Positions 42,304 through 64,000 of a stretch of 64,000 nt of DNA are shown one piece after another. Source of the stretch: Polyangiaceae bacterium (GTDB taxonomy: Bacteria > Myxococcota_A > Polyangia > Polyangiales > Polyangiaceae); assembly GCA_033763455.1 (NCBI GenBank), contig JANRKO010000060.1:78586-142585 (forward strand), read 5' to 3'. Numbering within the stretch: position 1 is the stretch's first letter; each line of letters begins with the position of its first letter. Made by a program: the position numbers and the translations under genes. The notes below the pieces were generated by a model. The model was not told where the DNA came from. It saw only the letters and a program-made list of their open reading frames with translations, and did not search any database.

Positions 42304-44217
42304 CTATTGCCACCACTGGTCGTCGAAAAGGCCTGCACGTGCGGTGCCTGAAGCAGGCTTTTTTGGCGCCGATTGGGCTTCAGTCGCAGAAACGGGAGCT
42401 TCTTTTTTGGTGGCAGCCTTGCTTGTGGGTGCGGGCGCTTCTGAGGGGGCGTCGGTTGCTTGCTCCGCCGGGCGTTTCTTCGGGCGTGAAGCCGTGACGA
42501 CAGGCCCGGAAGCGACAACCGTGGTGGCCACCGCTGGGGGAGCGCTCGCGGCTGGCTGCGCTGGGGACGCGGGAGGGGGAGCAGGGGTAGCGATGTTCGC
42601 TGTGGTTGGCACGGCTGTGGTTGGCGTAGCTGCAGGTGGCACGGCTGTGGCCACAGGCTGCGGTGCGATAACTAAGGGCTGCGGAGCAGGCAAAGGGCTC
42701 CGCTCAAGCGCAACGGGCCTTGCGGTACCGAGCGCCTCTCCTTTTGCGGCGACCGCGCCTTGTTTTGCGCCGCTAGGAAATAGCTGAAATGCCAACAACC
42801 CAAGGACACCGATAGCTAACGCTGCGAGCAACAGATTCGTGGTGCGAGCGCCCGATCGATTGCCGGTGACCTGAGGCTGTGCAGGCGCAGGGAGCGATTG
42901 CACCGGGGCTTGTTGGGCCGGCGCAACGACGGGCGCAGTCGATCCAGCCTGTGCGACCGAAGGCGGGGGAGCCGCTGAAACGACCGGGGAAGGGGGCAAA
43001 ATCGGCTCTTGATCAGCCGTGGCGATCGGCGCCGGTGGGGTCGAGACGAACAGGGGCGGAGGCATGCGCGGGGCCTGCGTGCTTGCGCCGGGGAGCGGAG
43101 GCGGAGTGCGCGCACTCGGAACCTCAGGGAGATCCCATGACCGCGCTTCGGGGCGCTGAGTGTCGCGTTCGTCTTGGCGGGTATAGACCGCTGGGGGCTC
43201 GGAGCTACGCGTCCTCTCTTGCAGCGCTTCCTTTAAGGCGTGCACGGTCTGAAATCGATCATCGCGAGATTTTCGCAAGCAACGGAGTAGTGTGCGCTCC
43301 AGGCTCTCCGGAATATCCCGCCGTAAGCTTCGAGCGGGCGTTGGTGGATCGGCCACGATCTTCGCCAAGAGGCCTGGCACCGTGCGGTCCTCAAACACAG
43401 GTTGCCCCGTGAGCAATTCGTACAAGATCGCCCCGAGGCTCCATACATCGGTGCGAACATCTAGGTGGCCGGGATCTCGCGCGTGCTCTGGCGCCAGGTA
43501 ACGCAGCGAAAGTGGGACCGAAGCCATCGATAACATCCCGGCGCCGGCGCTTCCGAGATCTGTGGCTTCAGTGCTGGAGGTGGTGAACCCGACGATGCGA
43601 ATGATGGGTGAGCCGTCCGCGGAGCGACACACGAAGATATTTTCAGTGCTGAGCCCGCCGTGAATCACGTTCAAATCATGGGCAGCTGCAACGCCCACGC
43701 ACGCCTGGAGGATGTAGTCGACGGCTTCCGGTATGGGTAGGGCTCCTCGTACCTTGATCACCTGCGCCAGATCTGGACCAGTGGGCTGCTCGGTGACCAT
43801 GTAGGGCGGGCCAAAATCGAGCATCCCCACGTCTAAGACGCGCGCGACGTGTTCACTTCGAACCTGGGAAAGACGACGCGCCCCAGTAAGGAAGTCGCCA
43901 ACGGCATCAGGGAAGGCAAGAGCCTCCGGGCGAAGGTATTTCAACGTGGCGGCTTCATCCAGCACGAGGTGCCTCACCTGCAGCAAGGTCGCGAGCCCAA
44001 CGTCGGCGATGCGGCGTTCGACCCGATACTTACCAGCTACCACTTCGCCGGGCCGAACGTGTCGACGTGCTCGCACAAGTGCAGCGGAGTGCGGTGGCAC
44101 GGAATACGAACGCTGAGAACTCACTTGATGGTCCCGCGGTTCTTCATCGAGCAACTCGTCCTCGCGAACGTCCAGCTCTTCCTCAGCGGCTAATACACTC
44201 CGAAACGATTCGTTCAT
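42304..44217 (-). CDS. Membrane-spanning Ser/Thr kinase-like protein with degenerate catalytic motifs (probable pseudokinase)
   Basis: Kinase fold retained (YLAPE, DVWSLGAILYELLTG), but HGGLSTEN replaces HRDLKPEN and DFG is absent. Pro-rich linker, TM helix and Pro/Ala-rich tail. Confidence 0.85.
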   Translation of the reverse strand: MNESFRSVLAAEEELDVREDELLDEEPRDHQVSSQRSYSVPPHSAALVRARRHVRPGEVVAGKYRVERRIADVGLATLLQVRHLVLDEAATLKYLRPEALAFPDAVGDFLTGARRLSQVRSEHVARVLDVGMLDFGPPYMVTEQPTGPDLAQVIKVRGALPIPEAVDYILQACVGVAAAHDLNVIHGGLSTENIFVCRSADGSPIIRIVGFTTSSTEATDLGSAGAGMLSMASVPLSLRYLAPEHARDPGHLDVRTDVWSLGAILYELLTGQPVFEDRTVPGLLAKIVADPPTPARSLRRDIPESLERTLLRCLRKSRDDRFQTVHALKEALQERTRSSEPPAVYTRQDERDTQRPEARSWDLPEVPSARTPPPLPGASTQAPRMPPPLFVSTPPAPIATADQEPILPPSPVVSAAPPPSVAQAGSTAPVVAPAQQAPVQSLPAPAQPQVTGNRSGARTTNLLLAALAIGVLGLLAFQLFPSGAKQGAVAAKGEALGTARPVALERSPLPAPQPLVIAPQPVATAVPPAATPTTAVPTTANIATPAPPPASPAQPAASAPPAVATTVVASGPVVTASRPKKRPAEQATDAPSEAPAPTSKAATKKEAPVSATEAQSAPKKPASGTARAGLFDDQWWQ

Positions 44218-44348
44218 GGTGCTCCTCGGGGAGCTATACGCCGTAAAGGGCGGACTCGCTCCAGCAAATTCTGCTACAAATAGGCGACATCCATGACGCG
44301 AGCGTGACGATCTGATTCGCTGCGCGTCCGGCCTGCGTGACCGCTAAC

Positions 44349-45200
44349 TCAGCGCTTTACCAACAACGCGTTGTCGAACAACACTTCGAAGCTTGGCTGT
44401 TGGAATGGTTTGGTAACGCCCAAGCTAAACAGTACTGATTGGGCGTTGTCGGGCGCGGTAACCACTTGGCTCAGAGTTGTCCACTTCCCAACCTCACTCG
44501 TGCTGCCACCTTCAGCCACTGACAGGAAGCCCGGAGTGGTGCAGTTCGATGAGCTAAACCAGCGTAGAGCAAGGCCGCCGTTGCCGGTTCCCTGGCCGCC
44601 CGCGATGAACAACTGAACACCAACGTCGTAGGTGCCGGGCGTAATCGAGATGCACTGGCGGGTGTATTCGACGACCTGAAGTATGGACGTGCTAGATACA
44701 ACCGTGAGCTGAACCTTGACCGCCCCCGAGCCCTGATAGGAGCCAGCATCTTGCTCAGCGGCCCAGGTTTGCGTGATGTGTGGATCAGGTAGCCAGAATT
44801 CTAGGTTCTGCGCGAAATCTCCGTTCTGGGCGAGTGACTCCTCGCAATCCAGGACGCGATTCCCATTTAGATCTGGGCATTTCAGAAGTATCGGTGGTCC
44901 CGCCCCACCAGAACCCATTGAACCCACGCCTGCCGTGCCCGCGTGCCCGGCGTTCCCGACCGCACCTCCAGAGGGGCCTATCGGAAGTGCCCCGCCAGCT
45001 GATGCGCCGCCCCTGCCAGCAAGGTTAGACTCAGCACCAGCTTCACCGCCAGCGCCCGAACCTCCTGCGATCGCTCTGCGTACTGAGATCGGTAGAGCCA
45101 GGGCACGATCGTCCACGGCGCAGCCGCCACCAAGTATCACGGGGCTTATGCTTGCGAGGCCGAAACAGAGCAGCCTGGCAGCGCATCGTGGTCGTGACAC
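44349..45200 (-). CDS. Lipoprotein with Gly-rich linker and C-terminal CBM-like beta-sandwich domain
   Basis: Lipobox-like LGGGC; CPDLNGNRVLDCEESLAQNGDF...LFDNALL is paralogous to the C-terminus of 56510-58222. Confidence 0.75.
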   Translation of the reverse strand: MSRPRCAARLLCFGLASISPVILGGGCAVDDRALALPISVRRAIAGGSGAGGEAGAESNLAGRGGASAGGALPIGPSGGAVGNAGHAGTAGVGSMGSGGAGPPILLKCPDLNGNRVLDCEESLAQNGDFAQNLEFWLPDPHITQTWAAEQDAGSYQGSGAVKVQLTVVSSTSILQVVEYTRQCISITPGTYDVGVQLFIAGGQGTGNGGLALRWFSSSNCTTPGFLSVAEGGSTSEVGKWTTLSQVVTAPDNAQSVLFSLGVTKPFQQPSFEVLFDNALLVKR

Positions 45201-46397
45201 CTAGAAGCTCCCCTCGACGATGGCGCCGGTAAGCGAGCGGCCATTGTCTCCCAAGAGCGGCCCGACCCGGACGCCAGACTTCTGGTGCTTCGGTGCGTAG
45301 ACATCTGAGAGGATCAAGAAGCCTCCTACAGCTAACGCCACACCTCCGAGCCCGACGCCGATAAGCCCCTTGGTGCGAGCACTTCGGGCCTCTCGCACGA
45401 GCTCCGTATGGCGCGTGATCTCCGCCACGGTGCAACCCTGGCTGCTGGGGCATACGGCCTTCGCGTCCGCGTTGGAGCTCGAATAATCAGCAAGAAAAGC
45501 GAAACCCACGGCACTAGAGAGGACGCCGTAGCCGGCGATCGCGTAGCCCAGGTATGGTGGAGAACTCTCTTGTGTCTGAATTACCCCACTGTCTTTTGGC
45601 ACAGCCGCAGGCGTAGCCCCAGCGGTTGAAGTGGTTCGGCTTCGCGTTGTTGCCGGCGTGGAAGACGGGCGCTTGGGGCGCTCATCGACTCCGATGAGCG
45701 CAGCGTTTGTTGCGGCTTGGGGAAGCTCGTCGGTGAGCGGCGGGATCTTCACCGAGATAATGGATGGGCACACGGGTACCTCAACTTCAACGGACCACGG
45801 AAGCTTTCCCGGAGCCGAGGCTTGAAGGCTGTACGTGCCGCTAGTGACATAGGAGCCTCGATCCCACGCGCTCGGCTCAATTACCTCACCATCTCGACGC
45901 ACGATCAGCGACTTTACGGGCTTGTCCGCCAAGATCCGCAACTTGCAGAGTCGAGGTTTCAGCAGCTCTGCGCGATTTGAGGCCTCCGCCTCGCGGGCGC
46001 TGTCCCCGGATGCGCGCATTGCTTCGGCAACTTTCAGAAAAAGCGCCCTCGCTTCCACAAGCTTGCCGCGCCGTTCGAGGCAATCAGCGAGATTAAATTG
46101 GGTGGTTACGCGTGGCACCAAGGAAAGGCTTTGCGTGAACAAGAAGCAGGCCTCCTCCACCTCACCATTCTTAGCCTTGGCGAGACCATCGAGGAAAAGC
46201 GTGCGAGCTTCTGCCTCCTTGGGGTCCGCAATTTCAGACGGCTCCGCGTGAGCAGACGGACATAAAGTGACCGCCATAAGCAGCGATGCGAGTAGCCCGA
46301 CTCCCCACCTTTGGCTCCAGAACCCTCTTCGCAATGCCCGCGCCATCATTTTGGGTTGCCGGAAGCTAGTCGAGTTCACTTCTCCTTGATGTGACAA
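45201..46397 (-). CDS. Exported TPR-like protein with Ig/PEGA-like domain and C-terminal hydrophobic segments
   Basis: EARTLFLDG...EEACFLF...FNLADCLERRGKLVEA helical repeats, GTYSLQASAPGK and a C-terminal GAIVEGSF. True start may be the ATG at 46349. Confidence 0.75.
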   Translation of the reverse strand: MSHQGEVNSTSFRQPKMMARALRRGFWSQRWGVGLLASLLMAVTLCPSAHAEPSEIADPKEAEARTLFLDGLAKAKNGEVEEACFLFTQSLSLVPRVTTQFNLADCLERRGKLVEARALFLKVAEAMRASGDSAREAEASNRAELLKPRLCKLRILADKPVKSLIVRRDGEVIEPSAWDRGSYVTSGTYSLQASAPGKLPWSVEVEVPVCPSIISVKIPPLTDELPQAATNAALIGVDERPKRPSSTPATTRSRTTSTAGATPAAVPKDSGVIQTQESSPPYLGYAIAGYGVLSSAVGFAFLADYSSSNADAKAVCPSSQGCTVAEITRHTELVREARSARTKGLIGVGLGGVALAVGGFLILSDVYAPKHQKSGVRVGPLLGDNGRSLTGAIVEGSF

Positions 46398-46427
46398 GTT
46401 GGGGGCAGATTGGTGGCGTTCATATTG

Positions 46428-46859
46428 TTATTCGCAAGTTATCGGAACGATCCCCGAAATTGAATCGCAGCTCCCGTTACTGACGGTCACGTGAACATCA
46501 AAGGAGCCGGGCTCGGTACAGGTATAGGTTGAATTCGCTTCAGAAGGGGCTGAAATGGTGCCTCCGCTTGCAGACCAGTTGTAGTCGAGCGTGCCGCCTT
46601 CAGGATCCACTGCGCGCGCGAAAAGTAAGGCGTGTGTCCCGATCTTTAAGTTTGTGGGTGCCACAATTGCGAACTCAAGCTCTGGACACTGATTCTGGGT
46701 GATTCCCACGATCACAGGCGTTCCCCGCGGCGGACGATTGCCCGAAACGTTTGGCTTAAAGGAAAATGGATCTTCTTGGCCGTAATAGTCTCCGCAAGCC
46801 AGCAAAAGGGCAGTGCTGAATACCGCAAGAACAAGCTCTCCAAAGTAAGCGTCGCGCAT
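46428..46859 (-). CDS. Small lipoprotein consisting of one Ig/PKD-like domain
   Basis: Lipobox LLAC; NQCP...AVDPEG...WSASGG...YTC...VTVSNG.C. Confidence 0.75.
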   Translation of the reverse strand: MRDAYFGELVLAVFSTALLLACGDYYGQEDPFSFKPNVSGNRPPRGTPVIVGITQNQCPELEFAIVAPTNLKIGTHALLFARAVDPEGGTLDYNWSASGGTISAPSEANSTYTCTEPGSFDVHVTVSNGSCDSISGIVPITCE

Positions 46860-47066
46860 TAGGCGGCCGGGACCGTATCATTTAACGACGCTCCCTGTTG
46901 AGTCGCCAAGAAGTGTTCACGTGTTCTTCACACGTTGTTAGATGTGCGTTTAGTTCGTATGCAATGAGTGAAAACCCCCAAAGCGCCCCAACACGTCACG
47001 ACAATGTGACTTCGCGGCTCGTCCGTTCGCCGTAGATTCCGGCAAAGCATGGCGAGGAGAGCCCCT

Positions 47067-48929
47067 ATGAAGACATTCTCGGTAGCACGCTGGGTGGGAT
47101 TTCTTTTCCTGGTTGGCGCCAACGCGGGCGCGGCCCCGCTCATTGGATCGGACGACTTGGCAACGGTGACGCAGCAAGTGTTAGCCAGTTGCGCCGGGGC
47201 AACTGGGATTACTCCCACTTTTGGAACCTCCGCCCAAGCGGAAGCTGCTTTAGCCCAGCGCATCCAAGAAGTCGCGCCGATGACGCGTCCTCTTGACCCA
47301 GCCCCTACCTGTGGAGGGCCGAATGCGAAGGAAAGCGAGGGCGTGGTGTTCGGTTTGGATGCGGCGGTCGCCCTGGGCGCACAGGCGGAGGTGGGCTCTT
47401 GTGCCTTAGCGTATAGCCGTACGCTGGCTGTCACGGACCAAAATGGTAACCCGGGGTTAGATTGTCCGGATTGCAGTGCAGGCTTTTATCAACTCACCGA
47501 TTGGCGCGATGTCTTGCGTGTGCTCCTCGCTGGAATGACCCACGGCGCAGGCTCTGATCTTGCCTCCCAGCAGTGCAATAGTGATGTGCGTCACACACTG
47601 GCTAACTCCTGGGCGTCGTTGTTTCAGGGGGAATGCGGTGCTTCGGGGTGTACCGCTTTGCGCCACATCTTTCGAGCGGAGGACACAGCGGAAGTGTCCG
47701 TTACCCTCTTGAAACTTCTTTCCTTGCCATCCCCCGTAGTGGATGCGGCAGGTGAGCCAATTTCTACCCCATTTTGCAATGGCGGCACTTACGACGACAA
47801 TGACCCGGTCCGCCGCCCGTGCTCCGATGCTGAAGGAGTGTGCGGCGCCGATGGGACACTCGGCTTACTCCTGCCCGCGGCACCAGTGAAGAATGCTCCC
47901 GCATCCGCCGCGTATCCAACAATGCCCTGTAGCACAGGGGTGTACGAGTGGCGTCCAGCTCCAAGCTCGGAACTCTCCTCTTGCCCCGGCGGTGGCCTCA
48001 ACGTCTTCACCCTGTGTTTGGTACCAGGCCTAACACTGCCGGACGGCACCGTTAGCCATCAGTGCTACAAGTCAGAAGCCAACGATGCGCCGTTTTTCAC
48101 GCCTAACAGCGTAAATACAAGGGTTTTTAACAAGTATCTCAGAAATCCCAACGGCTCGTTAGTGATCGATAACCAAGGCCGCGAGGTCTATGGTGCGTTC
48201 TACCGTTTGCACAGCGCCTCCGCGCTTTCACCTTCCGGGCGGCTGTGCACCGAAGCGGATGCACAAGGTGCGCTTGGGTGCTTGCCACAAGCGAGCCAGT
48301 GTAGCCTTAGCCTCGCCCGGCGCGTGGCCACTCGCCAGGCTGGAAGCCACGCGCTTCCGATCAATGCCGTTTCTCCAACGGACGCCAACGTGCGGAAGAT
48401 CTTGCAGAAGCCTGTGCCCGGGGATGCATATCCTCTTTCGAGCAAGCTTCTGATGAACACGATGGTGGGCTCTGAAGAAGTGGTGAGTCTACCGCAAAAG
48501 AACCTGTACGAATGTTTTCGCCGACAACTATTCGCCGAGACGCCCGTGTTGAATGCAGGCTACGTTTCCATTCAGCAGAATGGGATCTGCGAAGATTTCG
48601 ATGAGCGCCAGTGTGGCGCGGTGTTCAACAAGAATAACTGCAAAAAGGGCATTAATTTTTGCCCCAGCATAGGGCTGGTAACTGCCTTTCCACTCCAAGT
48701 TGCCGTGGGCGGTACCGTGTTCTTGTCGGGCTCTGCCAGTGATATTGATGATCCGTTTTCGGATCTGCAAGTGGCGTGGAGCGCGCCCTTTGGCACCTTT
48801 GCTGATTTTCGCTCGCTCGCGACTACCTATACGTGCACTCAAGTTGGCACTGCTCAGCTCAAGCTGACCATCTGGGACGGGGCATGCGATGATGTTTTTT
48901 CTGTGTCTGTAACCTGCGTGGCTCCGTAA
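47067..48929 (+). CDS. Secreted Cys-rich PstS/PBP-like protein with C-terminal Ig/PKD-like domain
   Basis: GAGGAG RBS and signal peptide. GSDDL, APMTRPL, GLDAAV, INAVSPTDANV and YPLSSKL follow the PstS-type motif order. Confidence 0.65.
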   Translation: MKTFSVARWVGFLFLVGANAGAAPLIGSDDLATVTQQVLASCAGATGITPTFGTSAQAEAALAQRIQEVAPMTRPLDPAPTCGGPNAKESEGVVFGLDAAVALGAQAEVGSCALAYSRTLAVTDQNGNPGLDCPDCSAGFYQLTDWRDVLRVLLAGMTHGAGSDLASQQCNSDVRHTLANSWASLFQGECGASGCTALRHIFRAEDTAEVSVTLLKLLSLPSPVVDAAGEPISTPFCNGGTYDDNDPVRRPCSDAEGVCGADGTLGLLLPAAPVKNAPASAAYPTMPCSTGVYEWRPAPSSELSSCPGGGLNVFTLCLVPGLTLPDGTVSHQCYKSEANDAPFFTPNSVNTRVFNKYLRNPNGSLVIDNQGREVYGAFYRLHSASALSPSGRLCTEADAQGALGCLPQASQCSLSLARRVATRQAGSHALPINAVSPTDANVRKILQKPVPGDAYPLSSKLLMNTMVGSEEVVSLPQKNLYECFRRQLFAETPVLNAGYVSIQQNGICEDFDERQCGAVFNKNNCKKGINFCPSIGLVTAFPLQVAVGGTVFLSGSASDIDDPFSDLQVAWSAPFGTFADFRSLATTYTCTQVGTAQLKLTIWDGACDDVFSVSVTCVAP

Positions 48930-49131
48930 TCGGCCCTCGATTCGAACAGGCTGTTCGTTTGGCTACAGGTTCGATGGTTCGCACTGCGTGATTAGTTCAC
49001 ATTGTTTGTGTGAATGCTGCCTACGTGTGCAGCACTATTAGTGCATCTCATGCGCTTAATGCACTTGTGCTACGCGATTGTCTTGATCGTTGCGGTGACA
49101 TTCTCAAGCGCTTTTGCAGGGTATTCGCCTT

Positions 49132-49168
49132 CCTGGCGTCGTACATGGACCCCGCAAATGTAACATCG
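49132..49168 (+). promoter_or_regulatory. Conserved upstream element (copy 1) shared with 50848-50884
   Basis: cctggcgtcgtacatggaccccgcaaatgtaacatcg versus ccaggcgtcgcagaaggatcccggaaatgtaacaccg. Confidence 0.55.
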
Positions 49169-49248
49169 TTGCTGTTTGAATTCGGTTATACGAGTCGCGC
49201 TGCCAATTCTGGGCAGAGTAAGAAATTCAATACTGGAGGTCATTCATC

Positions 49249-50730
49249 GTGACTAAATTCTCATTCGCAAAAGCAACAGTACTCGCGTTGGCCAGCATTT
49301 GCGGCAGCGCAGCTGTCGTCGGCTGCTCCACCGGAAGCGATCAACTCGCACAAGGTAGCGTCGGCGAAGTTGGCCTAAACCTCACCATCGCTCCGGGCGT
49401 GGTTGTCGACGCCGTCACCTTCACGGTGACTGGGAACGGCATCACCCCGATCACCAACAGCATCCCTGTCGCCAGCCTAGGCTCCACGGTTTCCGCCGTT
49501 ATCGGCGGTCTCCCGGCTGGTTCCGGCTACAACATCACCCTTTCCGCCGTTTCGACGGATGGCAAGACGAACTGCGGTGGTTCGGCTCCGTTCAGCGTGG
49601 TAGCTGGCCAGACGACCTCCGTAAGCATCGCTCTGCAGTGCCGTGGTCCTCAGACCACCGGTGGCGTGCAGATCGGTGGCACGTTCAACAACTGCCCCAC
49701 GGTTGACGCCTTGGTGGTATTCCCGCTTGAGGTTACCATCGGCACCCCAATCAGCGTCTTTTCAGGCGCGAGCGATGTCGACGGCAACATGTTGACCACG
49801 TCATGGAGTGCCACGAGCGGCTCGTTCGCAGATGCTGCCGCGGCCAATACAAGCTATTCCTGCGGACTCAAGGGCAGCCAGACCCTGACCGTTACGGTTT
49901 CGGATGGCAACCCTGCTTGCAACGCCACTGCTCAAGTTGCAGTCAACTGCTTGTCTGCGGCTGTTTGCGGCAACAGCGTTGTTGAACCCGGTGAAGCGTG
50001 TGACGACGGCAACACCGTTGGTGGTGACGCGTGCTCTGCTAATTGCTCACAGATCCTCCCAGTTTGCGGCAACAACATCCTTCAGCCCGGTGAAGAGTGT
50101 GAGGATGGTAACAAGGTATCGGGCGACGGCTGCAGCAGCACCTGCCAGACCGAGGCTTGTGGCAACAATCGCGTGGATGCGAACGAAGAGTGCGATCCCC
50201 CGAACGGCGTGACGTGTGACGCACAGTGCAAGAGCATTGGCGTTGTTTGCGGCAACGGCATCAAGCAGGCCAACGAAGCTTGCGACGATGGCAACCTGGT
50301 GAATGGCGACGGTTGTGAGGCTGACTGCACGATCACCCCCGATCCTTGCAAGACCTGCTTGGCCGCTAGCTGCCAAACCAACATCAACGCATGTGCCAAT
50401 GCCACTGGCAACGCTGCTGCGGGTCCCGCAGCGGGTCAGCCCAAGAGCGCACTCTGTGCAGCCATGAACACCTGTGCTGATACCACGAAGTGTGCGAAGG
50501 GTAGCCTTGGTTCTGGTGAAGGTTGCTACTGCGGTACGGTTGACACCACGAGCTGCATTTCCGGTCTCGCTAACGGTCTGTGCAAGACTGAGGCAGAACG
50601 CGCTGCAGAAACCACCAGCGGCCTCACGGTTGGTCAGCGTTGGGTGAACCCTGGGTTTGCGATCGGTCTCTCCGGTCAGTACATCCGTTGTTCACTCCAG
50701 CAGTGCAAGACGCAATGCGGCTTGCAGTAA
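49249..50730 (+). CDS. Cys-rich lipoprotein: Ig-like domains, Myxococcus Cys-rich (DUF4215-like) repeats and one 14-Cys domain
   Basis: GGAGGT RBS, lipobox VVGC and repeats CGN...E.CDDGN...GDGCS..C. Confidence 0.88.
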   Translation: MTKFSFAKATVLALASICGSAAVVGCSTGSDQLAQGSVGEVGLNLTIAPGVVVDAVTFTVTGNGITPITNSIPVASLGSTVSAVIGGLPAGSGYNITLSAVSTDGKTNCGGSAPFSVVAGQTTSVSIALQCRGPQTTGGVQIGGTFNNCPTVDALVVFPLEVTIGTPISVFSGASDVDGNMLTTSWSATSGSFADAAAANTSYSCGLKGSQTLTVTVSDGNPACNATAQVAVNCLSAAVCGNSVVEPGEACDDGNTVGGDACSANCSQILPVCGNNILQPGEECEDGNKVSGDGCSSTCQTEACGNNRVDANEECDPPNGVTCDAQCKSIGVVCGNGIKQANEACDDGNLVNGDGCEADCTITPDPCKTCLAASCQTNINACANATGNAAAGPAAGQPKSALCAAMNTCADTTKCAKGSLGSGEGCYCGTVDTTSCISGLANGLCKTEAERAAETTSGLTVGQRWVNPGFAIGLSGQYIRCSLQQCKTQCGLQ

Positions 50731-50821: not shown

Positions 50822-50847
50822 GGCTTAGCGCGAGTAGCGCCTGGTGC

Positions 50848-50884
50848 CCAGGCGTCGCAGAAGGATCCCGGAAATGTAACACCG
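50848..50884 (+). promoter_or_regulatory. Conserved upstream element (copy 2)
   Basis: Same motif as 49132-49168, at a similar distance from the paralog start. Confidence 0.55.
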
Positions 50885-54268: not shown

Positions 54269-54859
54269 ATGAGCCCAAATGGTCGGTCTTTTGTCCAGCT
54301 GGGGGCGGTGGCCTTGCTGCTGGTTGTGGGTGTGTGGTTGCTGATCCCGACGGGCGAAAGCGCGCCAATGGCAGCCCCGGCGGGCGAGACATCGGGGCCG
54401 GCAGCTTCAGCGAGTAGTCCAAGTCCTCCTTCAGAACCGGGCGTTAGCGAAGCATGCCTGAAGTGTGGGGCGGCGGCGTGCGCCGAAGAGCAGAAGGGGT
54501 GCTCGGTGCTCTCAGGAACAGCGACCGATGGTTTTCGCAAGGGCGCGTCCCGAGTGCAACTTTGTGAGGAGGTTCTGTCGTGCGTCCGGAAAACCGGGTG
54601 TGCTCCAGGAGCACGCGGGGTGGGGCACGAATGTTACTGCGGCGGGGACGACGTGCAGAAGTGCATCACCGAGGCCACGCCGCACGGCCCGTGCAAGGAG
54701 GTGATCGAAGCCGCCGGTGAGTCGAATTCTCCGATGGAGGTAGGCAAACGTTGGGGTAACCATGAGTTCGCGGTGGGGGCGGCATTTCGGAGGGTCCGCT
54801 GTGAGGCTCAGCGCTGCCGAACCGAGTGTTTCCCTGGTGCTAAGCCAGAGGCGCGGTGA
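54269..54859 (+). CDS. Membrane-anchored or exported protein consisting of a single divergent 14-Cys domain
   Basis: N-terminal hydrophobic helix; all 14 Cys plus CYCG and G.RW....FA.G are conserved. Confidence 0.8.
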   Translation: MSPNGRSFVQLGAVALLLVVGVWLLIPTGESAPMAAPAGETSGPAASASSPSPPSEPGVSEACLKCGAAACAEEQKGCSVLSGTATDGFRKGASRVQLCEEVLSCVRKTGCAPGARGVGHECYCGGDDVQKCITEATPHGPCKEVIEAAGESNSPMEVGKRWGNHEFAVGAAFRRVRCEAQRCRTECFPGAKPEAR

Positions 54860-56343: not shown

Positions 56344-56352
56344 GCGAATTAA

Positions 56353-56368
56353 TGGCACAGAGTGTGCT
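56353..56368 (+). promoter_or_regulatory. Putative sigma-54 (-24/-12) promoter
   Basis: TGGCACAGAGTGTGCT matches TGGCAC-N5-(T)TGC with GG-N10-GC spacing, in intergenic DNA upstream of 56510. Confidence 0.65.
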
Positions 56369-56509
56369 TAGTTGAAGCGCATCCTGGCATGTCTTGGCCC
56401 CCAGCACGCCACTTCGTTCGTCTTCAAATCTTCACATCATTACTACTCACCTGAGTACGGTGTTTGGTCTATGCGCTACCGGCAAACCCGCTCGTAGGGA
56501 TTGATCATT

Positions 56510-58222
56510 ATGCTGAGAACGCGCCTCGCTTTCGTAATTGTTGGTGTGTCCTTGTTTGCAGCGCACTGCAACACCGATGGGCGGCGATCGCCAAGTCGCG
56601 TTACGATTTTCAGGAGCTTTGCCGGCGCAGAGGGGATCGCGGGCCAATCGCAGAACGGGCTCGGTGGTGCCATGGGTGCACAGGGCGGTGGTGCAGGGAG
56701 CGGTGGTGCAGCGAACGGATCGGGTGGCGAAGCGGGAGCTACGGGAGCTGCCGGCTCCCCAGGCGATACGGGGGGTGCGGCAAGCGGAGGTAACCCAACG
56801 TCAGCCGGGGGCAGTGGCACGGGAGGGGCGTTCCAGGTTACTGGCGGTAGCGGGGGCGTGCCTTCAGGCACGACGGGTGGGCAAGGCACGGGCACGACGG
56901 GTGGGCAAGGCACGGGAGGCAGCGGCAACGCATATGAGGTGTGCGTGGCTACTTGTCAGCAGACGTACTGCGATACGCAGCGCGCCAACTGCACGAATGC
57001 CACCGGCAATGCCGTGGCGGGACCTGCGGCGGGGCAGCCGAAGAAGAACTTGTGTGGCGACATGATCGCATGTGCTGAGGCGACGAAGTGTTACGCGGGG
57101 AGTACTGGCGCGGGTGAGAGCTGCTACTGCGGGACGGCGGACCAAGTTGGGTGCATTAGCGGCCTGGCTGACGGCGCGTGCAAGATGGAGGCCGAGAAGG
57201 CGGCCGAATCAAGCGTGGGCCTCACCATCGGTCAGCGCTGGGTAAACCCAGGTTACGCGATGGGGTTGAGCGGCGTGTTTATACGTTGCACCTTGAAGGC
57301 ACCTGTGGAATGCGCCAAGCAGTGTTCAAGTTCGGGCACTGGCGGTTCAGGGCCTGTCGGTGGCACAGGCGGTGGCTCATCTGGCGGAAGTGGCGGCACC
57401 GAAGCTGGCGGTACCGGTGGTGATCTTGGTCTGGGTGGCACCGAAGCTGGCGGTACCGGTGGTGACTTGGGTGCGGGTGGTTCGGGAGCTACCGGCGGTA
57501 GCGACGGCCTCGGAGGCGGCGGCAGCGGAGGTGCCCTAGGCGCTGGCGGTACGTTGGGCAGCGGTGGCACGTTAAGCAGCGGCGGAGGCGGCGGGTTGGG
57601 CGGAAGTGGAGGTTCGCTTGGTAGTGGTGGCTCCGGCGGAGGAACGCCTCCAGGAACTTGCGTTGGGCCGAGCTCGTGTTACGTCGATCTGAACGCCAAC
57701 GGTAAATCGGATTGCTCGGAGTCTGTGGTTGCCAATAGCCAGTTTTTGAACGACATCGCCGGATGGTCGCCCGGGTACCTGTCGGCTGGTGCGTGGAGTG
57801 CTTCTGGGCCAAACAGCTGTACGGGGTCAGTGGCAGCCACCGTGAAGAGCGGGCTTCAGCAGGGCGGTGTCTCCCAGTGCGTTCGGGTGACAGCTGGAGA
57901 TAGCTACCGCGTGCGCGCACAATACTTCATCGAGGCTTCCCTCACCACGACTGACGCGTCCCTTACGCTCGCCGCTTACTCGAACGCAGATTGCTCGACG
58001 GCTGGGCCAGCACTTCCTGGGGGCACATGGACATCGAGTGGCAGCGTACGCGGCACGTGGACTTCGCTCCGCTGGCTTTCGCAGGATACGCCCCCCGTAG
58101 ACCTGATGGTGATGCCGGTGGGTGCTCAATCACTGAGGATCTCCCTGAACGCAACTCGACCGAGCTCCTCACAGCCCGACGCCACGGTGCTGTGGGACAA
58201 CGTGTTACTCCTCAAACAGTGA
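56510..58222 (+). CDS. Gly-rich lipoprotein with one 14-Cys domain and a C-terminal CBM-like domain
   Basis: Lipobox-like AAHC, GGT/GGS linkers, domain paralogs elsewhere in the cluster. Start is the ATG at 56510 or the TTG at 56501. Confidence 0.82.
   Translation: MLRTRLAFVIVGVSLFAAHCNTDGRRSPSRVTIFRSFAGAEGIAGQSQNGLGGAMGAQGGGAGSGGAANGSGGEAGATGAAGSPGDTGGAASGGNPTSAGGSGTGGAFQVTGGSGGVPSGTTGGQGTGTTGGQGTGGSGNAYEVCVATCQQTYCDTQRANCTNATGNAVAGPAAGQPKKNLCGDMIACAEATKCYAGSTGAGESCYCGTADQVGCISGLADGACKMEAEKAAESSVGLTIGQRWVNPGYAMGLSGVFIRCTLKAPVECAKQCSSSGTGGSGPVGGTGGGSSGGSGGTEAGGTGGDLGLGGTEAGGTGGDLGAGGSGATGGSDGLGGGGSGGALGAGGTLGSGGTLSSGGGGGLGGSGGSLGSGGSGGGTPPGTCVGPSSCYVDLNANGKSDCSESVVANSQFLNDIAGWSPGYLSAGAWSASGPNSCTGSVAATVKSGLQQGGVSQCVRVTAGDSYRVRAQYFIEASLTTTDASLTLAAYSNADCSTAGPALPGGTWTSSGSVRGTWTSLRWLSQDTPPVDLMVMPVGAQSLRISLNATRPSSSQPDATVLWDNVLLLKQ
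56867..56914 (+). repeat. Perfect 24-bp tandem repeat x2 (GTTGGQGT)
   Basis: ggcacgacgggtgggcaaggcacg occurs twice in tandem. Confidence 0.9.
57395..57472 (+). repeat. 42-bp tandem repeat x2 (GTEAGGTGGDLG)
   Basis: ggcaccgaagctggcggtaccggtggtga at 57395 and 57437. Confidence 0.85.
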
Positions 58223-58228
58223 GGTCTC

Positions 58229-59200
58229 TTGGCAAACGGCCGCATGCAAAGTGGGTTACGCATCCGGGGAAGGTGGGTGAGCATTTCGGGTGCGCTTATA
58301 TCTTTGCTGTCGGCGCCGGAGGCGTTGGGCTTCTGTCGAGCGCATGCTTGTGATCCCGACTCGGGTCAGACTTGTACGCGGGATCCGGCGACCCAATGTT
58401 CGAATCAAGGGGTACAACTCAGCCGGAAGAACGGTTGCTTCACCTACGGCGTGGCGCGGGGAGCGGGGTTCCCGTTGGGGTTGAGCGATGCGGAGGTTGA
58501 AGCGATCATCGCGCGAGCCTTCCGAAAGTGGGCGTCCGCAGACTGCGACGGTCGGCCGCCAGGAATCGTTGTACGTACGGTGGGTGTCGTGGACGCAACA
58601 GCGCCGTTTACCTGTGGAGTTCCAAGTCTCAATTTAGACACCTGGTTCGTTACGCCCCTAACGAACTCCAGTGCGGAGATGCCGACCAACGCGTTGGTTG
58701 CGGGCGCAACTGTGCCCAAATTCCTTGAAGCTACTGGGGAAATTATCGATGCGGATGTCCGCCTGAATGAGTCTTTTTGGGGAGCTCTTAGGAAAGATCC
58801 GACATTCCTCGGACTCCTGGCCACAACCGCTGTGCACGAAGCGGGTCACGTACTCGGCTTGGCGCACTCTCAAGATAAAGCCGCCTTGATGTTCAGGAGC
58901 TATGAAGTTACCACCGATCGCCCGCTCGCTGCTGACGATGTGGCTGCGATCTGTACGCTCTACCCACCAGTGGAGAGTGTGACGTGCTCGGAGCCAGGTG
59001 TCACCGAGGCCGCTCTGAACCAGGCTGCTTGTGATGCTGTCGCCAAGCAGAGTGGATCGGGATGTGCGATGGGGAACGCCCGGCGTGAGCCAACGCCCTG
59101 GGCCTGGGCGGTGTTGTGCCTGGGGATTTTGGGGGTGGTGGGTTGGCTTGGATTGCGCTTTGCGTCTTCTAAGCCCTCTGCCCGAAAAGAGGTTCGTTAA
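58229..59200 (+). CDS. Matrixin-family (M10-like) zinc metalloprotease with MYXO-CTERM-like C-terminal anchor
   Basis: HEAGHVLGLAHS, Met-turn ALMF and DDVAAICTLYP; tail SGSGC, TM helix and basic residues. Confidence 0.88.
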   Translation: MANGRMQSGLRIRGRWVSISGALISLLSAPEALGFCRAHACDPDSGQTCTRDPATQCSNQGVQLSRKNGCFTYGVARGAGFPLGLSDAEVEAIIARAFRKWASADCDGRPPGIVVRTVGVVDATAPFTCGVPSLNLDTWFVTPLTNSSAEMPTNALVAGATVPKFLEATGEIIDADVRLNESFWGALRKDPTFLGLLATTAVHEAGHVLGLAHSQDKAALMFRSYEVTTDRPLAADDVAAICTLYPPVESVTCSEPGVTEAALNQAACDAVAKQSGSGCAMGNARREPTPWAWAVLCLGILGVVGWLGLRFASSKPSARKEVR

Positions 59201-59237: not shown

Positions 59238-62200
59238 CTACTTCGAAAGGCTCTCGCATTGATCGTAGCCAGGCTTCGGTAGCGCGGTCCCGCGCGCCAC
59301 CGCGTCAACATAAGCGAACACGGCTAGCCCTGCATTGATGGCGCCGCGCCGAGCCCAACTGGTGATTCGCTCCTCCGTCCATATTGGAGAGACGGTGGCT
59401 CCACCCATCACACTGATGTCTTGGAACATTTGCGGTGGACAGATCGGGAGTGGCTTTCCTCCGATAGGGTGACTGTCTGCGTACGCCTGGAGTGCTTCAT
59501 CCGTCGTGTTGGTTCCGGCTCGCAGGCACCACGGTAGACGATTCGACGCGCTCACCCCCGAAACGACTTGAGCGTCGTGCGTACCTACCGGCGCAGAACT
59601 CGGATAAGCTGCTCTGTCGTAGAGGTTCACAGTTTGGTAATCGAAAGACAGAGTGCCGCCGCCGGAGACCACGTGGATAGCACGCACAGGGGGTAAGTTG
59701 TCGAATCCGCACAGCCTCTGCCACATTTCGGCGTCGCCGTTGCTGTCAAACAGACCCCAGTCGACAGGACCTTCCGTTACGAAATGCCCTCGCTCAGGGT
59801 TGAACCTTGTGCTCTGGCCGGGCAGCACCTGACGGCAGAGCTCCATGGCGACCTGTAGCATATTCGGCGAGCCGGCAGGTAGGGTCAGCTGCCGCTGCAT
59901 GCCTAGGACCGGCTTAGCGCCCACAAGCTGAAGGATCGACGGTGGAAGGTTGACCTTGGTGCCTCCCAGACCCATCCATGCGACGTAGCGACCTGCGACG
60001 TCATCCACGGACAAGCCCCAGGCACCTGCATCCACCCCGAGGACGTCGTTTCTATACTTGCCAGGTAGATCGACTGGGCCAAAGAGGCCGTCGCGGAGGT
60101 TTGCGACTCGTGCGATGCCCCCGGTCATCTCGACGATGCGGTCGGCTAGCTTACCGTTTGAGTCCGCCTTCTGCCCGTGGCAGTTGGAACAGATCATTTC
60201 GAAAACAACACCACCCGGGGTTTGCTCAAAGACAGGCTTGTTACGTCGGTCAACCTGAACTTCCTGAGTCCATTGCCACTTATCGGCGTTCTGGGCGAAG
60301 GCATCAATCGTGGGGACCGTTGAGAAATCGCACTCAGGATTTTCCTTCCAGGTGCCGTAGGGGAATGTCTGGAGTGCGAAGGCGCGCAATTCCGGGGTGA
60401 GTTGGACGGACTTCAGCAGCTTGAGTACCCCAAGCTCTTCCTCCGTGATGCACGTTATTCCGGGCTCGCAACTTACCCCAATGGCGAAACCGCTGGGAAG
60501 CGGGGCGAAAGGGTCGAGCGAAAGAACTTTTTTCCAATCCGCGCGCCTGGGGTTCCAGGGGCCCGGAACCTGTGTTGTATCAGTGGGGATGAAGTGCGGG
60601 CGCAATGGCACGCCCAGAGCAAACTGTGGGCTCGGGTTCGGTTCCCTCGGTACAACGATTGTCTTGCCCTGCGCATCGGTAGTGCCTACCTCCGGGTCTA
60701 GGATGTCAGTCGTGTCTGGACACCAGTTGTACCGTTCGCCCGCTTGGTAAATCTTGAGTCGCTCCTCGGCTTCAGCAACGGCGTCCTCGTAGCTGCCACC
60801 CCCGCGCTGGGTGTAGTGGTTGGTCTTACGCCCCGCGCCCGGCAAGACCTCCACGAACGGTTGCGTCTTCATGCCGAAGTCTTTGATCTCCGGATCAATG
60901 CACCAGCCGCCAACGCAGTACTCACAGTTGTGCTTGTCCGTCGTTCCTGGGGCTGGTGAGAGGAGCTGCCATCCCGTTGGAATGATGCCTGGGTTAGTCC
61001 CGTTGTCGAAATAGTCCAGGAGCGGCGTTTCGCACGGGACCATCCAGCCGACGGCCGTCACCTTTACCGGTGCTTCATTTCTGGCTTCAGAAATGCGCCT
61101 TCCTTCAAGCTGCAGATGCGCCGGGATACTTACCATCCAGTTGCCCGCGATTTGCGGCAATCTGCAGTCAAACCCCGAGGTATGGAGGGGCATGTGGGTG
61201 AAGATCGCCTTGCCTTCGGCATACGTGAACGGTGTATCGACATTGCGGTAAATGAGGCTGCGCCAGGGTGCGTCCACCGGCTCCTTCTCATTGTCGGGAA
61301 TCGTTTGTCCATTCGCGCGCAAGAAGGGTACCGAGCGAGGTGGTTTCGAGCCGCCTGCCAGGCCTGGTAGGATCATCTTTCGTTGGGTGATGGCATTTGA
61401 CTCGGACTCGAACTTCGCCGACATTTCGGTAAGCGAAGGTGTGATGTAGGGGATGTCGAATTGAGCGTCAGGGTCCGCTTGCCTGAGCCTCCCATAGCGC
61501 TTGGTTCGCGGACTCACTCTATCCAGCGGAAACTGGAAGATTCCGCCGGATTCAGCATCTGGCCAGAAGTTGAGCACCGACGCGAGCTCCGGGAAGTTGG
61601 TGGAGGGGAATCCGCGGGGATTGTGACAGTGTGCACAATTGCCGAGAAAGTATCCTTGAGCCTCAAGCTCGTACTTGTTTCTAGGTTTCCTGGAGCCTTG
61701 CGAATCTTCTAACTTGGCCTCTCTGCCCGACGCATCTATCCCAGTGACGACCCCGTAGTCGATCAGCCGCTGCAGTTGCGTGAGTTCGTCCTCGCTCGGC
61801 GCCTCAATGGTGCCGCCTTCCCCGAGCGGGCGTCGGGCGATCTGAAGCGGTGTGAACCCGAGCACGAAACTTCCGTCCGGGGCGCCTTCGTGACATTGAT
61901 CGCAACGTTCCTTGCCCGGGATCGCGTAGTGGCGCAAAAGGCCCTGCTTCTTGAGCTCTTTCACAACATCAGGCGAATCGCCTGCCAAAATTGGAGCGGC
62001 TTTTACTTCATCAGTGGGGTAGGTGATAAGCTCGTCCGCGAATACGCTGCCGTCGTTGCGCCTAGCCTCTTGGAGCACAGCCTCAGACTCGTCGTCGTTT
62101 AGCCACTTATAGGTACCGTAAAGAGCGTTCACTTGGGAGGTGCCGTCGGGCGCCTTGGTGTCCGGTCTTGAGACGATGATCCTGGTCTCGATCTTGCGAA

Positions 62201-63227
62201 AACTGACCTTACCGGTGAGGTCAATCACTTGCTTGAAGAACGTCTTGTAAAACCTGGTGTTCGCGGGAATGTCGAAGAGCTTGGTAGTTGGGTTGTAGGC
62301 AATCGATTTCCCAACAGGTACGCGGACGTGTCGGAGCTTCTTTGCGTTGTCCGCCCAAAGCGGGTAAGCGGGCGCAAAGGCAATGACGCCCTGTTGCGCC
62401 AAGATTTCTGAATCGAGAGAAATGAGGTCCGTCTCTTCGAGGCGCTTGGGAAGTTCTGTGGCCTTCTCGAACATTTGGTCCAACTTGGCTGCCGCGTCCC
62501 TGTTCGTCCCCACGAGCGAAGCTTCGGGGATGCAATTGCCGATATTCGTCAAACTCTTTCCGAGGGTCTCGGAGAGCACGTAGGCTTTTTTCGGATCCAC
62601 CGGCATAGGTGGATAAAAGAGGTCAGGGGGGCTTCCAGCCGCAATCCACTGCTTGAGCTCATTCGCGTACTGTAGGATGGGGTCGTCTGGGCTGCGTTCG
62701 CTCACTCGCTTGCCAAGCGGGGGCTTGGGCATCACCAGGGCCAGGTCGTCACTGAGCATGCGATCGACAGCCGCAGTGTTCATCTTCGCGGGAAAGGTTT
62801 CACGCGTTACGTTCCAGCCGCCGAGGCTCTGCGTGGTGTGGCAAACGTAGCACTGGCCTACCGATTGATACTTGTTCCAAAGAGTGTCCACGAATATTGG
62901 TTGTGGCTTTGCTTGAGCATCCGGGGAGGTTACCGAGCTACGCGCGGGAACTTTCTCGGCTTCGGTCGCGCGGGCGGGAGTGCACACTCCCTGGACGCTG
63001 CTGCCACCACCGGGTCCACCGCTTGCCGGGCTACCCGGTGCCCCAGCGTTACCGCCAACCCCCGAAGCGCCCGGGATATTGCTTTGAATATTGGGCCTCC
63101 TTGGGTAGGTTTCGTAGATGATGGTTTCAGACGGCGGTCCGGGGATATTCGTCTCACACGCCGTGAACAGGCAGCCGATGATCCCCAGTCGTGCGATCGC
63201 TTGCAGGTTTGAGAGGCGATGAATCAT
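59238..63227 (-). CDS. Large lipoprotein multiheme cytochrome c (4 CxxCH) containing an SO2930/HNE_0200-like diheme module
   Basis: Lipobox FTAC; CYVCH, CDQCH, CAHCH and CSNCH; PLWADNAKKLR...FYKTF...ETRII...YKW precedes the central heme pair. Start uncertain (63227, 63236 or 63296). Confidence 0.82.
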   Translation of the reverse strand: MIHRLSNLQAIARLGIIGCLFTACETNIPGPPSETIIYETYPRRPNIQSNIPGASGVGGNAGAPGSPASGGPGGGSSVQGVCTPARATEAEKVPARSSVTSPDAQAKPQPIFVDTLWNKYQSVGQCYVCHTTQSLGGWNVTRETFPAKMNTAAVDRMLSDDLALVMPKPPLGKRVSERSPDDPILQYANELKQWIAAGSPPDLFYPPMPVDPKKAYVLSETLGKSLTNIGNCIPEASLVGTNRDAAAKLDQMFEKATELPKRLEETDLISLDSEILAQQGVIAFAPAYPLWADNAKKLRHVRVPVGKSIAYNPTTKLFDIPANTRFYKTFFKQVIDLTGKVSFRKIETRIIVSRPDTKAPDGTSQVNALYGTYKWLNDDESEAVLQEARRNDGSVFADELITYPTDEVKAAPILAGDSPDVVKELKKQGLLRHYAIPGKERCDQCHEGAPDGSFVLGFTPLQIARRPLGEGGTIEAPSEDELTQLQRLIDYGVVTGIDASGREAKLEDSQGSRKPRNKYELEAQGYFLGNCAHCHNPRGFPSTNFPELASVLNFWPDAESGGIFQFPLDRVSPRTKRYGRLRQADPDAQFDIPYITPSLTEMSAKFESESNAITQRKMILPGLAGGSKPPRSVPFLRANGQTIPDNEKEPVDAPWRSLIYRNVDTPFTYAEGKAIFTHMPLHTSGFDCRLPQIAGNWMVSIPAHLQLEGRRISEARNEAPVKVTAVGWMVPCETPLLDYFDNGTNPGIIPTGWQLLSPAPGTTDKHNCEYCVGGWCIDPEIKDFGMKTQPFVEVLPGAGRKTNHYTQRGGGSYEDAVAEAEERLKIYQAGERYNWCPDTTDILDPEVGTTDAQGKTIVVPREPNPSPQFALGVPLRPHFIPTDTTQVPGPWNPRRADWKKVLSLDPFAPLPSGFAIGVSCEPGITCITEEELGVLKLLKSVQLTPELRAFALQTFPYGTWKENPECDFSTVPTIDAFAQNADKWQWTQEVQVDRRNKPVFEQTPGGVVFEMICSNCHGQKADSNGKLADRIVEMTGGIARVANLRDGLFGPVDLPGKYRNDVLGVDAGAWGLSVDDVAGRYVAWMGLGGTKVNLPPSILQLVGAKPVLGMQRQLTLPAGSPNMLQVAMELCRQVLPGQSTRFNPERGHFVTEGPVDWGLFDSNGDAEMWQRLCGFDNLPPVRAIHVVSGGGTLSFDYQTVNLYDRAAYPSSAPVGTHDAQVVSGVSASNRLPWCLRAGTNTTDEALQAYADSHPIGGKPLPICPPQMFQDISVMGGATVSPIWTEERITSWARRGAINAGLAVFAYVDAVARGTALPKPGYDQCESLSK

Positions 63228-63411
63228 GTTCCACATCCTATTGGAGACCCCGGTGCACCGGCTTACATAGCACAAGGAGTGGGTCCTTCGCAGCAAGTGG
63301 ACTTATCGCACACCGCGCCGTATCGGATCTTGGACACGCGTTGGGCCCGGCGTCATCGTCGCCGGCCTGTCGCGGTTCGTGGCCCACCGCGACCACGGGT
63401 GGGTTGGTCCA

Positions 63412-63999
63412 TTAGTTGTAGGGCGGAATACCAAGTGGGTTGTTGAGGCAGGCGTCGAAGTTATTCGGTTGTGTCTCCTCACAAGTAGATTCGTTGAAGT
63501 CCACACATCGGACCTTCGCGGCTGGATCGATGAGATTCAGCGGCAGCAAGCCGGCCCAGGCGGCAGCAGCATGAACGGTGGGGCCGTGGGCGAAGCATCT
63601 GGCTACTTCTTGATTGCCGTTCTCGAATCCCCTAAGGGAGTTGAGGTACATGGGGGAGGCCAGTGGGTAGACCTTGGAGAGCACATTGGCGGGCGTGGGG
63701 CCGGCGCTGTTGATCCAAACCGCGGTTGCACCGAGCTGCTCTGCCTCTTGGCGGGCGAAGCCCATGCTGCAGGTGTACTTGGCTGCGAGGCAGCCGATCT
63801 GGCGGGTCGCGGATACCTCTCGGCAAGCGCTCGCCGTGCGGCTGCGGATACGGTACCAAGCACCGGTCACTTCGCGGTTCTCAGCGTCGATGATCAAGCT
63901 GCCGTTCGGGTTGCGGAGGTACTGGTTGTACGCCAAGGTGTTGGTGGTGTTGGGGGTGAAGAACGGGGCATCGTCGGCTTCACGCTTGAGGCAGCTGTG
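63412..63999 (-). CDS. C-terminal part of a PstS/PBP-like Cys-rich protein paralogous to 47067-48929 (5' end beyond the window)
   Basis: Frame is open to the window edge: HSCLKREADDAPFFTPNTTNTLAYNQYLRNPNGSL versus HQCYKSEANDAPFFTPNSVNTRVFNKYLRNPNGSL. Confidence 0.85.
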   Translation of the reverse strand, partial: HSCLKREADDAPFFTPNTTNTLAYNQYLRNPNGSLIIDAENREVTGAWYRIRSRTASACREVSATRQIGCLAAKYTCSMGFARQEAEQLGATAVWINSAGPTPANVLSKVYPLASPMYLNSLRGFENGNQEVARCFAHGPTVHAAAAWAGLLPLNLIDPAAKVRCVDFNESTCEETQPNNFDACLNNPLGIPPYN

Positions 64000-64000
64000 G

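Follow-up and report, generated by a model that had tools for sequence, protein, structure and literature searches.

A tetraheme cytochrome paired with PstS-fold proteins forms the conserved core of an apparently undescribed cell-envelope gene cluster in Polyangiaceae

Which genes of the cluster at positions 42304 to 64000 of a Polyangiaceae contig are inherited together, and what might their products do at the cell envelope? The window (the whole stretch of 64,000 nucleotides analysed here, from contig JANRKO010000060.1, below C60) belongs to a 6.56 Mb genome, G000. A first-pass annotation had proposed an undescribed, co-inherited surface system of lipoproteins served by two accessory cytochromes. 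Our analysis supports an undescribed, co-inherited cell-envelope system; the system is real and apparently undescribed, and its conserved core is a tetraheme cytochrome lipoprotein together with PstS-fold proteins, encoded in the window as follows (evidence in brackets; HMM, hidden Markov model; AF2, AlphaFold2; G001, a genome of the same genus):

59238..63296, minus strand: tetraheme c-type cytochrome lipoprotein, core (TIGR03806 below cut-off; AF2 model; conservation)
63412..64000, minus strand: C-terminal part of a stand-alone Cys-rich PstS-fold protein, core, cut by the contig end (HMM, synteny with G001)
47049..48929, plus strand: fusion of a Cys-rich PstS-fold protein, its anion site degenerate, to a PKD/Ig domain (AF2, VIA, motifs, tree)

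Homologs of the 59238 cytochrome in species-level genomes yielded 79 loci, from the best 80 of 192 confirmed stretches; their titles name mostly uncultured Polyangia or Myxococcales, and near-duplicate and repeat loci are among them. Neighbour counts are drawn from the loci of at least 20 kb (long loci, n = 41), and an all-versus-all BLAST covered 1472 filtered open reading frames (ORFs), a filter that may lose true genes. A PstS-fold gene lies within 10 kb of the cytochrome in 40 of the 41 long loci, and proteins with a 14-cysteine (14-Cys) domain lie near it in 40 as well; scattered homologs without synteny, the pattern expected if the genes did not form a system, were not seen. The signal peptidase LepB, a membrane protein with tetratricopeptide repeats (TPR) and transmembrane (TM) segments, here TPR-TM, the Ig domain and an N-terminal beta domain are each present at 33 long loci. 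Counts fall to 18 for a domain resembling carbohydrate-binding modules (CBM-like), 8 for the exported TPR protein, 7 for the matrixin, 4 for the kinase and 1 for the UshA-like cytochrome, the last four reaching 11, 8, 5 and 1 in all 79 loci. These low counts rule out the UshA-like cytochrome, matrixin, kinase and exported TPR protein as core. The second cytochrome, the matrixin and the pseudokinase, earlier taken for linked parts, are local passengers, and the transmembrane signalling module once ascribed to the cluster is not conserved. The 59238 cytochrome is core rather than accessory, as it persists with a small PstS-fold partner where the Cys-rich lipoproteins are absent.

The pairing of cytochrome and PstS-fold protein is well supported. 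In a sample of 401 genomes from one order, in which related genomes are not independent, the large PstS-fold profile matched 39 genomes, the cytochrome profile 43 (including the unpublished G327) and both profiles 35. In four genomes with the cytochrome profile only (G369, G370, G390 and G408), a short tetraheme protein of 906-1024 aa adjoins a small PstS-fold gene. Sorangium So ce1128 encodes the two proteins at adjacent locus tags (ACMHYB_10980/10985), and 6 of 11 measured pairs have a gap of 0-35 bp between the genes. Among metagenomes, 17 of the 18 long-type loci that span at least 12 kb have a PstS-fold gene, as do 13 of 22 short-type loci; seven of the nine short-type loci without one are contigs of at most 6.5 kb. 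No matches to LepB, Ig or 14-Cys were found at these 22 short-type loci.

The short cytochrome family comprises at least 744 database proteins, with records from Corallococcus, Pyxidicoccus, Stigmatella, Archangium, Sorangium, Pendulispora, Oligoflexus and Bdellovibrionota, and the cultured strains that have it include Stigmatella aurantiaca DW4/3-1 (STAUR_8374) and Corallococcus exiguus. Records of the small PstS-fold partner come from Sorangium, Archangium, Cystobacter, Myxococcus and Bacteriovoracia, and both families occur in named Myxococcaceae. The distribution of the system is patchy: the long cytochrome is present in only 2 of 341 genomes of a phylum-wide sample, and cytochrome homologs in 11 of 201 genomes of a class-wide sample. 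A Vgb-lyase-like beta-propeller and a lipoprotein with DUF4397 flank the short pair in three genomes (L174-L176), and the cytochrome in L181 likewise has DUF4397 proteins on its flanks. Literature searches found no published description of a cytochrome and PstS-fold system, and we know of no described system in which a PstS-fold protein is coupled to a multiheme cytochrome.

What kind of protein is the PstS-fold subunit? The AF2 model of 47049 (mean predicted local distance difference test, pLDDT, 81.3), which carries a C-terminal PKD domain, aligns with Vibrio cholerae PstS (1twy; VIA Z 20.6, root-mean-square deviation (rmsd) 2.7, 245 residues) and with P. aeruginosa 4omb (Z 19.6). The earlier count of two PstS-like proteins was right, and the fold is confirmed. 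Anion-site motifs (GSDT / GS / PMSR / R..SGT) are intact in 50 of 63 large copies, and the anion-site residues are invariant in the small copies, which hold only 2-4 Cys. In a quick tree, cytochrome-linked PstS-fold proteins stand apart from transport PstS (support 97), the large Cys-rich forms nest within the small ones (98) and the Ig-fused degenerate copies, 47049 among them, group together (98). Three ordinary PstS are encoded elsewhere in G000, and an ordinary pstSCAB lies about 7 kb past the cluster in G001. No pstC match was found at the 79 + 80 loci searched, and no ABC permease family recurs among the neighbours of the cytochrome; databases often annotate the PstS-fold partner as a phosphate-transport protein. 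L073, L075 and L076 hold PstS-fold copies of very large size (927-1027 aa), poor in Cys and with inserts that look like repeats.

The cytochrome, whose real start is probably Met24, has exactly four CxxCH motifs in 63 of 70 near-full homologs. Its AF2 model (residues 140-1339; pLDDT 79.9, predicted TM-score, pTM, 0.79) places heme 1 and heme 4 in class I-like domains, and the chain ends show a weak match to class I cytochromes. The match to TIGR03806 (E 1.6e-25, 89.9 bits, below the cut-off of 313.3) covers the middle diheme region, and heme 2 closes a beta-sheet domain like those of cytochromes P460 and c'-beta (residues about 280-490; VIA Z 5.9-6.0, rmsd 4.1-4.8). Foldseek with the cytochrome model gave no match at E <= 0.001, and PF16694 has no match on the protein. 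Heme ligands can be assigned provisionally from motifs: Met189, Met702, Met1108 and Met1146 are invariant in homologs, Met702 following heme 3, and no conserved His or Met is found in the beta-sheet domain ahead of heme 2. Lys351 falls within the spacing P344-x-N346-x4-K351, which in an alignment equals Pro71/Gly73/Lys78 of M. capsulatus P460; the available part of PMC6427953 gives Lys78 as the residue cross-linked to heme. The P-x-[NG]-x4-K register holds a lysine in 59 of 63 long proteins and in 35 of 36 short ones. The tree separates the long cytochromes from the short (100).

The P460/c'-beta fold and the conserved Lys would also fit nitrogen-oxide handling, in which hydroxylamine would be oxidised, or NO bound, by the P460-like domain under phosphate-dependent control of the PstS-fold protein. 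We judge this improbable: the 45 neighbour families that recur most include no N-cycle family, a small P460-family gene stands separately in G000, and the heme-Lys cross-link alone does not suffice for NH2OH oxidation, according to the accessible portion of PMC11928373.

Do the two proteins touch? We modelled the short cytochrome of G369 (residues 190-902) with its PstS-fold partner (residues 22-304) and obtained ipSAE values of 0.73, 0.73 and 0.72 in three runs; the best of three controls gave 0.00. Of 157 solved pairs 116 reach the ipSAE mark, and of 215 mismatched pairs 2 do; these figures are only roughly valid for our own alignments. At least 77% of contacts are common to the runs, and the partner pLDDT is at least 85. 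The interface takes in segments 31-32, 51-56 and 165-170 of the anion cleft and residues 711-728 of the cytochrome, which hold the heme-4 CxxCH. The short cytochrome and the small PstS-fold protein are thus predicted to bind each other, and the model supports an anion cleft sitting near heme 4. Recall of a like complex is unlikely because no homolog of the cytochrome was found among solved structures beyond short class I motifs.

Strict pairing and a tight predicted interface over the cleft, with an open heme site and very Cys-rich neighbours, are also what a maturase would show, that is, a MauG- or MbnH-like heme enzyme, which would oxidatively modify the PstS-fold protein or help to oxidise the many disulfides of the proteins of the cluster. 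The cytochrome has no peroxidase-family match by sequence or fold; the small partners have few Cys and their invariant residues are those of the anion site, and we give this explanation little credence.

Among loci of at least 12 kb, 12 of 55 and 6 of 28 have phosphate-acquisition-type genes nearby, versus 4 of 288 G000 tiles. A sigma-54-like motif was found upstream of none of 64 PstS-fold genes. On contig C64 of G000 (6868-21657), a lipoprotein that we presume to be beta-helix-like (a label without a family match) and a TonB-dependent receptor stand beside pstSCAB-phoU-phoR, with a Pho-box-like repeat upstream of pstS; the lipoprotein/receptor pair recurs next to the cytochrome in other genomes.

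The reading we favour, at slightly short of an even chance, is that the pair is an undescribed cell-envelope oxidoreductase for a phosphate-like oxyanion, with a putative substrate and direction. What the data show is joint occurrence and joint diversification of the two genes, with the anion-site motifs retained in most PstS-fold copies. The PstS-fold cleft is predicted to dock on the heme-4 domain, where a bound anion (of phosphite or arsenic type, or else a small phosphorylated molecule) would exchange electrons with heme 4. The His/Met hemes would relay these electrons, and the P460-like heme 2, with its register Lys and without a conserved distal Met or His, may be an open second redox site.

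Several observations weigh against this reading. The near-identical loci L198 and L199 carry the cytochrome with no PstS-fold neighbour and are true misses. The anion site is damaged in 13 of 63 large copies, the 47049 copy of the window included (RxxxSGT lost). The modelled pair is the G369 short form rather than the proteins of the window, and the model leaves out the heme-1 domain; its interface lies on the C-terminal heme-4 domain and not on the P460-like domain, which gives no support for a direct hand-over to the P460 heme and argues against simple delivery of the anion there. The likeness to P460 is of middling strength (Z about 6, rmsd 4-5 Å), no match emerged when the cytochrome profile was set against a 4-sequence P460 alignment, and Lys351 is a putative counterpart of the P460 cross-link Lys by motif spacing, a weak point. 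The phosphate-neighbour count leans on the TonB-receptor/beta-helix pair and on OprP-like porins, whose phosphate role is presumed, and it includes related genomes that are not independent. A Pho-box-like repeat is not enriched upstream (1 of 63 versus 12 of 791 in the background).

Could the cytochrome instead be part of a wire? A heme-bearing beta-barrel with an N-terminal CxxCH lies within 10 kb of the cytochrome in 21 of 79 loci, and low-GC loci follow the order PstS-fold gene, cytochrome, YceI, diheme cytochrome, heme barrel, porin. YceI and a barrel also occur on contig C2 of G000 (50311-58687, L178), apart from the cluster and together with a small CxxCH protein with a C-terminal TM helix and small cytochrome lipoproteins. 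These arrangements would fit an outer-surface electron conduit, in which the tetraheme lipoprotein, small cytochromes and heme porin would exchange electrons with minerals while the PstS-fold protein only captures or senses phosphate released from Fe-P. However, the barrel family occurs in 139 of 401 genomes (including the unpublished G327 and G396), most of them without the pair, which is found in about 43; in G000 it is not linked to the cluster, many short loci lack it, and four hemes per 900-1350 residues are sparse for a wire. The barrel family has no Pfam match, and the Protein Data Bank (PDB) search, the only check of Cyc2 likeness made, gave no relevant match. The heme porin is ruled out as an obligate part, and the conduit as a whole seems unlikely to us.

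In Polyangia the pair is joined by further genes. In 47 of the 63 loci that leave room for it, LepB is the next gene after the cytochrome; the G000 copy, on contig C25, matches PF10502 (E 2e-37). The Lys motif is present in 24 of 27 copies examined, the Ser motif having been the inclusion criterion. Other S26 genes are present in G000 and in four other genomes whose cluster has a LepB, and in a quick tree of 27 of the 51 cluster copies (those with the S.SM motif) and 13 others, the cluster LepB separates from other chromosomal S26 peptidases with a support of only 69. LepB is absent on at least three tree branches. A GAG-type motif marks the PstS-fold signal peptides in 35 of 51 copies with LepB and in 2 of 10 without, and AxA-Q ends are found in 1 of 51 and 7 of 10, respectively; three of the LepB-less loci in this comparison are short contigs. 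The cluster LepB is thus likely a dedicated signal peptidase.

The TPR-TM protein (L019:5073-6701 on contig C25 of G000) has in most of 35 sequences examined the layout TPR, TM, poly-Arg, a second hydrophobic stretch ending in AxA, TPR, TM and basic tail. This layout suggests an internal signal peptide, and the protein may be a polyprotein that upon cleavage would yield two anchored TPR proteins. The 14-Cys domain (1-4 per locus) belongs to no known family: it has no match in PDB sequences, Pfam gives only a flanking DUF4215 and weak singletons, and the best structural match in the ESM Atlas has a TM-score of 0.44.

A co-encoded peptidase with distinctive signal peptides, together with tandem PstS-fold paralogs, could indicate a disulfide-rich fibre, coat or adhesin array, in which the PstS-fold protein polymerises after SipW-like cleavage, 14-Cys/Ig proteins anchor it and the cytochrome anchors or cross-links. 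There are precedents for both elements in the available text on PstS/DING appendages (PMC3949141) and on tapA-sipW-tasA (PMC9245690). The minimal two-gene form, which lacks LepB, TPR-TM, Ig and 14-Cys, is still predicted to bind the cytochrome, and the anion site is kept; we regard an array of this kind as distinctly unlikely. A fibre or coat could possibly describe the Polyangia elaboration, not the core. Under the oxidoreductase reading, the Polyangia PstS-fold subunit would have acquired inserts rich in disulfides, along with an unusual signal peptide, rich in Gly/Ala, for the dedicated peptidase to cut, and the two-part TPR membrane protein and variable 14-Cys/Ig lipoproteins may chaperone or display the complex at the surface.

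A bolder form of the oxidoreductase reading, which we put forward as doubtful, is a new, molybdenum-free class of heme enzyme: a PstS fold would serve as the substrate site against a tetraheme cytochrome with a P460-type cross-linked heme, carrying out redox of P or As oxyanions at the surface of predators, and the Polyangia form would be built on a self-processed, disulfide-rich scaffold of a new 14-Cys domain. If the pair is an enzyme, it would represent new heme chemistry and a possible P or As redox route among soil predators. It may also offer a first hint at what the SO2930 domain does and extend the range of the P460 fold.

How are these parts arranged in the window? All 13 consecutive ORFs that had been reported are in place. 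They are transcribed in three directions (minus, 42304-46859; plus, 47049-59200; minus, 59238-64000), which rules out a single operon. Besides the core genes, the cluster contains:

42304..44217, minus strand: transmembrane pseudokinase, occasional accessory (Pfam, motifs)
44349..45200, minus strand: lipoprotein with the same CBM-like domain as 56501 (HMM)
45201..46397, minus strand: exported TPR protein, occasional accessory, distinct from the conserved TPR-TM protein on contig C25 (Pfam)
46428..46859, minus strand: small PKD/Ig lipoprotein (Pfam)
49249..50730, plus strand: Polyangia accessory lipoprotein with N-terminal beta, Ig, three TIGR02232 and 14-Cys domains (Pfam/TIGR/HMM)
50969..54064, plus strand: recent tandem duplicate and expansion of 49249, carrying three 14-Cys domains; the G001 cluster lacks it (80.5% nucleotide identity)
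54269..54859, plus strand: membrane-anchored protein with a single 14-Cys domain (without match in Pfam, PDB or Atlas)
54856..56343, plus strand: passenger, UshA-like with a C554-type tetraheme C-terminus; paralog on contig C33 (NF041198 below cut-off)
56501..58222, plus strand: protein with a Gly-rich linker, 14-Cys and CBM-like beta domain, and a non-canonical lipobox (HMM)
58229..59200, plus strand: matrixin (HExxHxxGxxH) with a C-terminal TM helix, MXAN_2677-like, occasional accessory; paralogs elsewhere in the genome (Pfam)

Most of the first-pass description of these parts held. The six 14-Cys domains (one each in 49249, 54269 and 56501, three in 50969) are there: by pattern, five hold exactly 14 Cys, and the one in 56501 is an HMM match (E 4e-43). 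The four Ig/PKD-like domains were counted correctly and their fold is backed by Pfam and structure (Z about 10). Both cytochromes carry four CxxCH, and the matrixin, the TPR protein and the pseudokinase (HRD to HGG, DFG to VGF) were correctly identified. The two domains called CBM-like (44349 and 56501) do recur, yet that label is unproven, neither having a CBM family match in Pfam; six of seven lipoboxes fit the standard pattern and the one at 56510 (FAAHC) is non-canonical. TIGR02232 repeats (3 and 9 copies) and the N-terminal beta domain common to 49249 and 50969 had been overlooked. The 14-Cys, Ig and CBM-like HMMs match this cluster alone among all ORFs of the 6.56 Mb genome, and the recurrence of these domains is therefore more than chance. 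The gene 50969 is a recent tandem duplicate and expansion of 49249; a near-identical stretch of 100 bp follows each gene (50731-50830; 54065-54164), a trace of recent duplication. The 54856 protein can be placed, from its match to NF041198 (E 2.5e-60, 204.5 bits, under the cut-off of 275), as a relative of this UshA-like (seleno)protein family.

The cluster had been thought to run on past the window edge; the window ends where contig C60 ends. The end of C60 matches the first bases of contig C25, and contigs C24 and C25 each break off within a PstS-like gene, in almost identical sequence, which indicates that the assembly broke at a duplicated gene. The two N-terminal halves at these ends both have GSDTL, PMSR and the R..xGT motif, and C25 carries signal peptidase I, an alkaline phosphatase and the TPR membrane protein. 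C24-C25-C60 is the likely order in G000 because G001 has the same genes on one contig, in the order PstS-fold, PstS-fold, LepB, TPR-TM, cytochrome, matrixin, Cys-rich genes. An IS630-like HTH protein, possibly a domesticated regulator, is divergent from the PstS-fold genes in both genomes (C24, L020:7422-8606 in G000; L013:8072-9208 in G001).

Elsewhere in the window we noted by eye a pilM-N-O-(P)-Q type IV pilus operon (5850-11269), two adjacent oligopeptide/dipeptide ABC transporter operons (16837-30388), in which one ATPase ORF (22836-24497) has a C-terminal TM helix and a tail like the type II secretion (T2SS) pseudopilin G, and a Gld/Agm-like ABC transporter set with DUF4340-like and GldG-like proteins (33635-39139).

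How does the system compare with known ones? The PstS-fold proteins share the type II periplasmic binding protein (PBP) fold and the anion-site motifs with PstS of PstSCAB, but form a separate clade, have a cytochrome partner and no recurring PstCAB family, and in their large forms carry Cys-rich inserts of up to about 300 residues. The PstS/DING appendages of P. aeruginosa are likewise built of PstS-fold proteins outside ABC transport; the available text of PMC3949141 mentions no cytochrome, Cys-rich inserts or peptidase, unlike this cluster. In tapA-sipW-tasA of B. subtilis, a signal peptidase I is also encoded beside secreted proteins with distinctive signal peptides, but the cargo there is a jelly-roll, whereas here it would be PstS-fold, and the core includes a cytochrome. 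Cyc2-type cytochrome-porins resemble the predicted barrel with N-terminal CxxCH found beside some of the cytochromes, although here the barrel is not required. Cytochromes P460 and c'-beta have a CxxCH-ended beta-sheet domain that the heme-2 domain resembles to a middling degree, with a putatively matching Lys register and no conserved distal Met or His; in this cluster the domain is embedded in a tetraheme lipoprotein of 900-1350 residues, and its cross-link and activity are putative. Finally, the middle diheme region is like that of SO2930-family diheme cytochromes (TIGR03806), whereas the protein as a whole scores under the family cut-off and adds two heme domains and a PstS-fold partner.

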